Assembly (NCBI GenBank): GCA_951406725.2
Contig: OX597818.1
Location: forward strand, 66,402,001-66,466,000
Length of the DNA: 64,000 bases
From: Octopus vulgaris
Taxonomy: Eukaryota
Direction: 5' to 3'
Part shown: piece by piece, positions 14,452-59,263 of the stretch
How the letters are laid out: each line of letters begins with the position of its first letter
Numbering within the stretch: the stretch's first letter is position 1
The notes under the pieces: model-generated
What the model was told of the DNA's origin: nothing
Seen by the model: the letters and a program-made list of their open reading frames with translations, nothing else
The model's database searches: none
Program-made: the position numbers and the translations under genes

Positions 14452-15025
14452 CAGTATTTCGTCTGCCGTTATGTTCTGACTTCTAATTCCGCACAGGTCG
14501 ACTTTGCCTTTCATCCTTTCGGGTCGACAAATAAAGTACCAGTTACGCACTGGAGTCGATGTAATCGACTTAATTCCTTTGTCTGTCCTTCTTTGTCCCT
14601 TCTATGTTTATCCCCCTGTTGGCTATAAAGAAATAAGACACATTAGCACGGCGGCCGAAATGCTTAGCGGTATTTCGTCTGCCATTACGTTCTGAGTTCA
14701 AATTCCGCCGAGGTCGACTTTTGAACTCGACCTAATTCTTTCGGGGTCGATAAATTAAGTACCTGTTACGCACTGGGGTTGATGTAATCGACTTAATCCC
14801 TTTGTCTGTCCTTGTTTGTAAATTCTGTGTTTAGCCCCTTGTGGGTAGTAAAGAAATAGGTATTTCGTCTGCCGTTATATTCTGAGTTCAAGTTCCGCCG
14901 AGGTTGACTTTGCCTTTCATCCTCTCGGAGTCGATAAATTAATTACCAGTTGCGTACTGGTGTCGATCTTATCGACTAATCCCCTCCTTCAAAATTTAGG
15001 GCATTGTGCCTAGACTAGAAAATAA
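14452..15025 (+). mobile_element. Three head-to-tail SINE family B copies
   Basis: Repeated GAGTTCAAATTC B-box and GGTCGACTTTGCCTTTCATCCTTTCGGGGTCGATAAATTAAGTACC core (from memory, resembles the MetaSINE central domain). Confidence 0.85.
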
Positions 15026-52786: not shown

Positions 52787-53258
52787 AGAGTGGTTGTATA
52801 CTGTCAACTTAATGTGACAGTCCCGTATGGGAATTGCACCACCGCTGTTTAGCCCTAGGAAGCCTCGAACGCTTCCTGTCGGCTTTGACACATTTTCTGT
52901 GTCCTTATATTTGTGAAGGGGAGGCACGCACCCCTACCAGCCAAGATTCACACCTGAGGACATGCATGTTTCTGGGTCTTAACCCGTCATCAGCCCAGGA
53001 TAGTGAGATCTGCTGATTGAGGTGCATGTCCAGCCTTCACAAATATATATATTTACAGCGAAATCTATTCACTGATCACCGTAATCAGAAATATTAAATT
53101 TCTAAATGTCTCAAAGAGACATGAGTGGTGGTGGAGTGAGAGAGTGGTTGTATACTGTCAACTTAACGTTACAGTCCCGTATGGGAATTACACCACCGCT
53201 GTTTAGCCCTAGGAAGCATCGAACGCTTCCTGTCTGCTTCGACCCATTGTGTCCTTAT
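52787..53258 (-). mobile_element. Retrozyme-like ~1.3-mer repeat (354-bp period)
   Basis: Direct repeats 52787-52908 and 53141-53258 flanking a hammerhead; no meaningful ORF; many hairpins. Confidence 0.7.
52944..53011 (-). ncRNA. Type I hammerhead ribozyme
   Basis: rc: CCTGGG-CTGATGA-C GGGT TAAG ACCC A-GAA-ACATGCATGT-C-CTCAGG; stem I extends via TCAC/GTGA and AGAT/ATCT; GUC cleavage predicted between 52959 and 52958. Confidence 0.82.
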
Positions 53259-53270
53259 GTATATGTGTAC

Positions 53271-53332
<62 letters not shown>

Positions 53333-58732: not shown

Positions 58733-59263
58733 AAGCAATAATAAATCTCTGAACGAGGTATAGACAGTAACTGCACGACAATGTGAAGTATATTTGCCAT
58801 CTAAATATGGTTAACCACTAAGGATGGATGTTACTGTAGCTTGTAGCCCCAGGAGGACATCTTCTCCAGCTGGCTATTGACAGTTTTTTCAAAGGGAGGT
58901 CATCCTTCCATTGTCAACCTAAGTGATATGGACGGACAGCAGATTCTGGGTATTGACCCGTCATCAGCGCACGACAATCACCGGTTTTCTATGGAAGGGT
59001 CCCAATGCAAATACATATATCCTTTTTCCAGTGACTTTTCGTCACTGATCTTGAAAAAGTGTAAAGAAGCAATAGTAAATCTCTGAACGAGAATATACTT
59101 CACATTGTCGTGCAGTTACAGTCTATACCTCGTTCAGAGATTTATACCGATAGGGCACAGAAAGTGTGTCAATAGCCAGCTGGAGAAGATGTTATCCTGG
59201 GGCTACAAGCTTACAGTAGTATCCACCCTTAGTGGTTAGCCATATTTAGATGGCAAATATACT
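58733..59263 (-). mobile_element. Rearranged retrozyme-like element (334-bp period) with decayed hammerhead
   Basis: Direct repeat at 58733/59067; inverted blocks 59092-59145 and 59167-59263; rc CTGATGA-CGGGTCAATACCCA-GAAT at 58943-58967; TA arrays on both flanks. Confidence 0.65.

Follow-up and report, generated by a model that had tools for sequence, protein, structure and literature searches.

Metazoan non-LTR retrozymes are small repeats for which the available text of PMC7229834 gives units of 350-390 bp in mussels. Circular RNAs have been demonstrated there for the mussel, coral and axolotl retrozymes, and Penelope-type elements (PLEs) are proposed as the mobiliser. In Xenopus, 8 of 9 retrozyme dimers showed no cleavage in vitro, according to the accessible part of bioRxiv 10.64898/2026.07.22.740005. 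In the insertion layout of EN+ PLEs, as set out in the available pages of bioRxiv 2021.04.23.441226, copies are truncated at the 5' side, form partial tandems, include an inverted 5' copy and are tailed at one end. Tx1 LINEs and SINEU elements form another relevant group. They insert into other transposons or snRNA genes, use flanking transcription and gain U1 or U2 heads at their 5' side (Kojima 2015, PMC4494074, available sections).

Here we describe a 354-nt hammerhead repeat of Octopus vulgaris that adds a new family to a class already known, the non-LTR retrozymes. Its copies were likely inserted by a PLE reverse transcriptase and GIY-YIG endonuclease acting in trans. So far, the mover of animal retrozymes has been argued from co-occurrence and pLTR similarity; in the present case, the PLE insertion layout is seen directly.

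A 354-nt unit with a type I hammerhead

The window is the whole stretch of DNA that was analysed, 64,000 nt long. It contains a direct repeat (52787-52914 and 53141-53268) with a spacing of 354 bp and 88% ungapped identity; with BLAST, the arms are 91% identical over 122 nt. The ~120-bp repeats reported by the sequence-only reading as a 1.3-mer are therefore real. We number the unit along the minus strand, with position 1 at 53140, position 354 at 52787 and the predicted cut after position 182. Sequence, BLAST and a descriptor search delimit one full retrozyme unit (52787-53140, minus strand). Upstream of it, BLAST identifies a 5'-truncated partial unit (53141-53258, minus strand) corresponding to unit 233-354 and 91% identical to the full unit. 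The full unit differs at 10 positions from the majority of the best genome copies. An (ATCT)n microsatellite (53271-53332) lies in the 5' flank of the insertion. No ORF of at least 100 aa overlaps the 354-nt unit in the window, in agreement with the non-coding character claimed earlier.

At the other side, the copy finishes at unit 354, the fixed untailed 3' end (52787-52800, minus strand) that arm-end counts find in 59 of 128 arms of the 3'-anchored sample described below. No tail follows past 52787. Copy alignment shows that unit 1-57 (53084-53140, minus strand) is the segment forming the 57-nt 3' tail of other copies. Elsewhere in the window, a 41-bp segment (58934-58974) matches the minus-strand hammerhead core at 84% and is probably a fragment of a sister family. 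A repeat with a 223-bp period (1.8 copies, 82%) occupies 14454-14858.

Sequence and covariation define a type I hammerhead at 52953-52999 on the minus strand. Stem I pairs CCUGGG with CUCAGG (52999-52994 and 52958-52953, minus strand) and has a bulged extension. The core comprises CUGAUGA at 52993-52987, stem II GGGU/ACCC and GAAA. Stem III is palindromic (ACAUGCAUGU) and is followed by GUC, with the predicted cut between 52959 and 52958. Every element of the complete minus-strand ribozyme proposed before was recovered at its place. One feature was absent from that description: positions 10.1:11.1, which close stem II, are C·A. A purine-pyrimidine pair is usual at these positions of hammerheads. 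C·A is present in 69 of the 93 distinct hammerheads taken from the loci, a set filtered for paired stems, and is thus a family trait and no decay of the window copy.

A descriptor requiring all three stems to be paired gave a single match in the window; over both strands of 300 shuffles (19.2 Mb) it gave none. The Infernal scan with Rfam hammerhead models, suggested beforehand as a check, came out negative: no hammerhead model matched here, at gathering score or at E<=10. Covariation was studied on 78 homologous hammerhead regions selected by BLAST, independently of pairing. In this set, 93.8% of the stem cells are paired, against 17-48% in slid controls. Double changes number 109 versus 32 in shuffles (0 of 500 shuffles as high), both counts being inflated by sequence relatedness. 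The sequence of the stem III palindrome differs between subfamilies.

The hammerhead sits at the tip of a long imperfect hairpin (52906-53047, minus strand) recognised by repeat and fold analysis, whose 36-nt arms (52906-52941 and 53012-53047) are 78% complementary. The whole 354-nt unit folds with a z-score of -9.4 relative to shuffles, none of 100 being as good; the 101-nt hammerhead region alone (z -1.2) folds no better than shuffles. The minimum-energy fold differs from the hammerhead, and the active fold is 2.7 kcal/mol costlier. With this cost and the C·A at 10.1:11.1, the predicted ribozyme may be weak.

The window stretch is a single-ribozyme genomic copy of a non-coding hammerhead repeat. 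It is an old dead-end insertion, since it has one ribozyme, no tail, no inverted arm and repeats that have diverged by 9%. With its single ribozyme, it is unable to release a unit-length RNA. By the two-hammerhead rule given in the accessible text of bioRxiv 10.64898/2026.07.22.740005, it is not an active retrozyme.

A dispersed repeat family and its sister families

The genome searched comprises 2.8 Gb in 227 contigs. An exact core pattern gave 126 matches and an exact 35-nt pattern of the 3' end gave 255; control patterns gave none. A first look yielded 3200 candidates for the 354-nt family, which is dispersed over many contigs. Copies are 80-95% identical, and from this range the true copy number is probably in the thousands. 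Long tandem arrays of the unit are absent, and neither genome pattern nor locus BLAST searches found a trimer. Exact core patterns count 3 head-to-tail dimers versus 126 single cores, the two figures coming from different patterns. Few loci (L005, L031, L032, L033) carry two hammerheads head-to-tail, and the longest copy, at L032, has ~2.1 units. Multimeric copies, for which a genome check had been proposed, are thus present, and the picture of a tandem repeat holds for these few dimers; as a description of a family dominated by single cores, it was overstated.

Three sister families have a similar size and layout. One of them (L110, L113, L114, L118) has CCGAUGA as its core (U4C) and pairs A with U at 10.1:11.1. 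Another, younger one (L287, L286, L288-L310) has a 358-nt unit, ~96% identity and 2598 first-look candidates. Its core is of the U3-A8 type, its two 3' ends are separated by 24 nt and some copies have ~2.4 units; it is the best candidate for bench tests. The U3-A8 variant has been reported for PLE hammerheads (PMC4209133, available part).

Being non-coding and retrotransposed, with a type I hammerhead and multimeric copies, the 354-nt repeat is of the metazoan non-LTR retrozyme kind, as the sequence-only reading had it. The novelty implied for the class was too strong, since non-LTR retrozymes are already published in the accessible parts of PMC7229834 and bioRxiv 10.64898/2026.07.22.740005. 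A literature search found nothing on point about an octopus family of such repeats; Repbase and Dfam, most subscription papers and the supplement of PMC7229834 lay outside its scope.

Insertions show a Penelope-type layout

Insertions were studied at 75 loci drawn from the first 100 of the 255 3'-end matches, a choice made to avoid a bias towards long copies. Ten places already examined were excluded, which removes mainly long copies. The 3' ends of 128 arms fall at unit 350-354 (59 arms), at a tail extending 50-60 nt further (46 arms) or elsewhere (23 arms). The family therefore has two fixed 3' ends 57 nt apart, unit 354 and 354+57. The 5' ends are variable and truncated. Head-to-head inverted pairs are found in 42 of the 75 loci. 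When both ends of a pair are standard, one arm is tailed and the other untailed in 26 of 30 cases; ~15 would be expected if the ends were independent. A microsatellite directly follows the end in 31 of 52 untailed arms and in 21 of 37 tailed ones; the background is 12.7%.

These steps can be read from the DNA. Copying starts at unit 354 or 354+57, mostly into microsatellites. It often yields a head-to-head pair made of one tailed and one untailed arm.

The template is a circle or an uncut multimer

Among 105 arms, 39 pass the cut site and 22 pass unit 116. Three arms stop at unit 180-188, about as many as a steady stop rate predicts. This rate is 0.18-0.27 per 30 nt from unit 265 to unit 26, and among the 105 arms 5' ends accumulate neither at the cut site nor at the putative transcription start. 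Stops are more frequent at the unit junction (7 of 11 arms at risk), a point against the explanation favoured below, although 3 of the 4 arms scored at position 1 extend by some bases into the previous unit. Since 39 of 105 arms cross the cut site unstopped, the template was not a linear cleaved monomer, so it was a circle or an uncut multimer. With the cleaved monomer excluded, circle versus multimer becomes a clean test.

With modest confidence, we favour insertion by PLE enzymes in trans, probably on a 354-nt circular RNA. Transcription would rely on the unit's own TATA promoter (unit 86-98), with a start near unit 119, ~63 nt before the cut; both assignments are deduced from sequence position. 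The rare two-hammerhead loci would be transcribed and cut twice, and the resulting 354-nt RNA would be closed by a host ligase. The palindromic stem III may favour a dimeric fold for cutting. As the DNA shows, copying stops at a steady rate, and neither the cut site nor the putative start acts as a barrier. This regenerates the putative upstream promoter and, occasionally, a new two-ribozyme locus. A circular template explains the read-through at the cut site and the promoter regeneration without trimers.

Less probably, the same element and PLE machinery used a linear uncut multimer, or RNAs joined by template jumps. The hammerhead would then cut rarely or serve recognition, and no circles would be made. 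This explains the read-through equally well, and dimer loci do exist. It also fits the C·A mismatch in the core and the weak in vitro activity of PLE hammerheads noted in the available text of PMC4209133. In addition, L033 resembles a switch between two RNAs near the cut site. In its tandem units (L033:1330-1915), private variants are shared 3' of the cut and different subfamilies are found in the 5' hammerhead half, which speaks against one circle copied twice at that locus. On the other side, L032 and L031 extend upstream of the putative start in the first of two units (to unit 28 and 96). A transcript from the unit's own putative start cannot give these copies, since both begin before that start and the searches yielded no trimer as a source. 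Moreover, linkage is intact across the cut site, with r2 values of 0.84 (147-183) and 0.80 (145-184) in a set containing some duplicate rows. Jumps between unlike RNAs at the cut site are therefore rare. No linkage break at the cut site was found overall, L033 being a single chimera.

Tandem neighbours differ by a median of 4.7%, versus 8.6% to other copies, and 15 of 15 are below the median, a closeness that a circular template would explain. The unit and parts of the cassette described below are present in contigs of sequencing runs presumed to be RNA; none of these runs is on record as RNA, and the contigs, which carry no strand, end, circle or level information, were not counted as evidence. 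The original proposal of a genomic copy made from a ~354-nt circRNA is right about retrotransposition. It went too far on the circle, since an uncut multimer or template jumping fits equally.

Search for a partner PLE

PLEs were searched for with a GIY-YIG motif, which gave 5868 matches in the genome versus 2 in the control. ORFs of 750-850 aa that combine RT with GIY-YIG are present. In the 39 PLE loci read, out of the 5868 motif matches, no sequence is shared between the unit and a PLE. An RT plus GIY-YIG ORF between the repeats was found in 0 of 193 unit-matching loci, and the sole internal ORF belongs to the ORF1 cassette. PLE fragments occur in the flanks of 6 of these 193 loci.

It is improbable that the unit is the pLTR plus leader of an unsampled autonomous PLE and that the copies are the 5'-truncated ends of that PLE. 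Such an origin would account for the PLE-like copy ends; the PLE loci read cover 39 of the 5868 motif matches, and 21 of 57 Xenopus retrozyme families match PLE termini in the accessible part of bioRxiv 10.64898/2026.07.22.740005. However, the unit is preceded by another unit, an ORF1 cassette, an inverted arm or flank. Copies exceeding a whole unit enter unit sequence and no ORF, and none of the PLE fragments at the 6 loci is in the pLTR position. The sequence-only reading had itself named a unit always attached as pLTR to a Penelope ORF as a refuting case; in the loci examined, no such ORF is attached.

Several loci were considered individually. L034, L035 and L067 were rejected as autonomous PLEs with this pLTR, since they contain the ORF1 cassette and unrelated LINE fragments. 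The PLE beside a sister-family copy in L241 and the PLEs beside L003 and L032 were rejected as partners, being (AT)n-joined with no homology. At each of these three loci, the retrozyme copy is located in an (AT)n run, within or next to one and the same PLE family. This placement reflects a shared target preference or hints at a partner. At L235 (G000:C1:27838500-27848499), a PLE forms a 4271-bp tandem in which a 454-aa upstream ORF overlaps a 775-aa RT-GIY-YIG ORF. The 454-aa ORF has no Pfam match, and no canonical hammerhead was found at L235.

An ORF1-only passenger

Some copies of the unit carry a 1.6-kb insert, present in 4 of 40 core-picked loci, 4 of 75 3'-end-picked loci and 0 of the 30 best matches. 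This cassette rides in about one retrozyme copy in twenty. It encodes a single protein of 460 aa, whose ORF is intact in L103, and no RT was found between this ORF and the AATAAA end. The CCHC knuckle of the protein scores below the Pfam cut-off. Its atlas neighbours are a ZCCHC3-like RBD and zf-CCHC (0.89-0.92), with a recognition value just under the threshold of the tool. The sole named homologue is from Octopus bimaculoides, and many genome relatives have open frames. A single-sequence structure model has a pLDDT of 39, too low to be of use, and no solved structure related by sequence was found.

The insert is bounded by unit ~140 on one side and unit ~121 on the other; most solo copies therefore carry a 14-21 bp duplication, whose exact place varies from locus to locus. 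The cassette 3'UTR motif has 134 matches; of 30 3'UTR hits, 27 have ORF1 directly upstream. In loci picked by the 3'UTR, 13 of 25 distinct ones run directly into a hammerhead repeat, of four families in all. Other cassettes run into further cassettes, forming 1.8-kb arrays without hammerheads. These arrays were considered as hammerhead-bearing, protein-coding retrozyme arrays and rejected, the spacers of L104 and L107 having no hammerhead. Young arrays with a ~1.8-kb period are found at L104-L106 and L274 (G000:C4:70029500-70056000), L107-L109 (C4:27048000-27069000) and L285. They start 27-30 nt behind a TATAAA word and have distant ORF1 families, once an autonomous LINE, at their 3' end.

This LINE (L106/L274) encodes a CCHC-bearing ORF1 33% identical to that of the cassette and has APE, RT and zf-RVT domains, its ORF2 being split in this copy. 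The L274 LINE and the cassettes have the same 3' end. From the related ORF1, the shared 3' end and the absence of RT, the cassette is an ORF1-only derivative of an L274-type LINE. From its domain layout, we take the LINE in L274 to be of L1/Tx1 type. A search found no description of an ORF1 cassette paired with a retrozyme in the literature covered, with Repbase, Dfam and most subscription papers outside its scope.

Site choice and co-mobilisation

Scored with a loose hand-made pattern on heads placed by eye, 27 of 31 array-leading junctions show a TATA-like word that starts 24-38 nt ahead of the duplicated head; the independent contexts among them number only about six. For three unrelated promoters, clean TATAAA words are found at -27 to -30 of the cassette heads. 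Two solo cassettes retain no more than a ~20-nt head. In L089, it corresponds to retrozyme unit ~119-138. At one locus, the solo cassette L092 (L092:3178-3196), the head is the first 19 nt of the U1 snRNA of this genome, inside (TG)n. Addition at the 5' side by template switching, as described for SINEU-2 in the available text of PMC4494074, explains the U1 head equally. A recurrent cassette target is an unidentified repeat with CCAAT and TATA boxes (L108:4560-4700, L119, L251); Rfam gave no useful match on ten cassette-target loci.

Position behind a TATA-like box, and not sequence, seems to guide the cassette to its site. The junctions suggest that the cassette, inserting ~20 nt behind the starts of Pol II, depends on the host promoter for its transcription. 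If so, the retrozyme start is near 53020-53024 in the window. In the window copy, the TATA-like run at unit 86-98 (53043-53055, minus strand) would, judging by the cassette heads, be the unit promoter. The cassette junctions also place a putative start zone (~53020-53024) and the cassette target region (unit ~116-151) at 52990-53025 on the minus strand, which is empty here. As seen in the DNA, the ORF1-only L1/Tx1-type derivative inserts just behind the putative start; it may borrow the retrozyme promoter.

In L037, L275 and L276, both arms of the inverted pair have their beginning within the cassette and continue into the retrozyme; one arm is tailed in L275 and L276. Since these arms start in the cassette and enter the retrozyme, a composite RNA was copied by a PLE-type route. 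The DNA of these loci shows that the retrozyme-cassette composite follows the same PLE route as the unit. Hammerheads flank the cassette on both sides in L035, L102 and L090, 2.0, 2.05 and 2.3 kb apart, and the ORFs are broken. L103 has the intact ORF and one hammerhead.

We suggest, tentatively and with considerable doubt, that an ORF1-only LINE derivative targets Pol II starts, 24-38 nt behind TATA-like boxes, lands ahead of the hammerhead in several retrozyme families and takes over their promoters. The resulting ~2-kb two-ribozyme units would be excised as protein-coding circular RNAs and moved by PLEs. The derivative would thus spread by both LINE and PLE machinery and supply an RNA-binding ORF1 protein to an RNA that lacks one. 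If the two-hammerhead composites were cut and closed, an animal would possess natural retrozyme circles that code for protein. The cassette parasitises ribozyme repeats and is then carried by a different class of retroelement.

The opposite derivation, in which a ~2-kb ORF1-carrying element is the parent and recombination between short direct repeats produced the 354-nt unit, is very unlikely and already largely refuted. It would fit the at least 30 near full-length cassettes among the matches listed and the copying of composites by the PLE route. It would also fit the clustering of cassette lineages by host family: a tree of 60 cassettes, with four long rows poorly aligned and some host labels taken from a short head only, has 13 host changes, versus 31.4 after shuffling. 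However, the minimum is 4 changes, and the sites occupied by the cassette include four repeat families, other cassettes and positions behind TATA promoters that are unrelated. The tree is one of long residence in host families with repeated switches. Furthermore, the repeats, which vary in position among loci, resemble target duplications that follow an AATAAA end, the cassette ORF and 3' end match a LINE, and only 4 of 75 unit loci contain the cassette.

Finally, a satellite, or a duplication at the DNA level, whose hammerhead is a relic or due to chance would fit a partial tandem adjoining a microsatellite without Rfam match, as in the window, but is hardly credible given the dispersal over many contigs, the fixed 3' and variable 5' ends, the inverted pairs and the covarying stems.

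Comparison with known systems

The 354-nt unit falls within the 150-400-nt size criterion for non-coding non-LTR retrozymes. It resembles the metazoan retrozymes in the available text of PMC7229834 by its non-coding unit of ~350 nt, type I hammerhead, palindromic stem III and partial tandems. In contrast to these, the octopus copies are mostly of sub-unit to 1.3-unit length, dispersed, with inverted arms, a 57-nt tail and few dimers. The octopus family further differs by its C·A at 10.1:11.1 and by the ORF1 passenger that accompanies some copies. The non-autonomous PLE derivatives of Li, Clavereau and Pollet (bioRxiv 10.64898/2026.07.22.740005, accessible part) share PLE-dependent retrozymes, dispersed monomers and rare dimers. 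Their case is built on co-occurrence and pLTR homology, in vertebrates only, whereas ours comes from the insertion layout. A homologous pLTR was not found for the octopus unit in the 39 PLE loci read.

With EN+ PLEs (Craig et al., bioRxiv 2021.04.23.441226; PMC4209133; available sections of both), the unit shares the 5' truncation, partial tandems, inverted 5' copy and one-end tail, as well as microsatellite targets and a hammerhead in a terminal repeat. It differs by having no RT-GIY-YIG ORF, a tail of 57 nt instead of 30-40 bp and a full type I hammerhead where the PLE form is minimal.

The cassette recalls HAL1 (half-L1; PMC5753468, accessible part), with an ORF1-type protein only, an AATAAA end and the 3' end of an autonomous APE-RT LINE. 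Unlike HAL1, which is described there from mammals, it is site-directed, forms head-to-tail arrays, seems promoterless and rides a PLE-mobilised ribozyme repeat. The one cassette with a 19-nt U1 head is reminiscent of Tx1 elements and SINEU (PMC4494074, available sections). In contrast to these, the cassette has several targets that are unrelated in sequence and alike in their position behind a TATA-like box, and its main hosts are retrozymes. The retrozyme adds one family to a class already known. Two things go further, its marks of PLE insertion and its start-site-seeking passenger, the ORF1 cassette.
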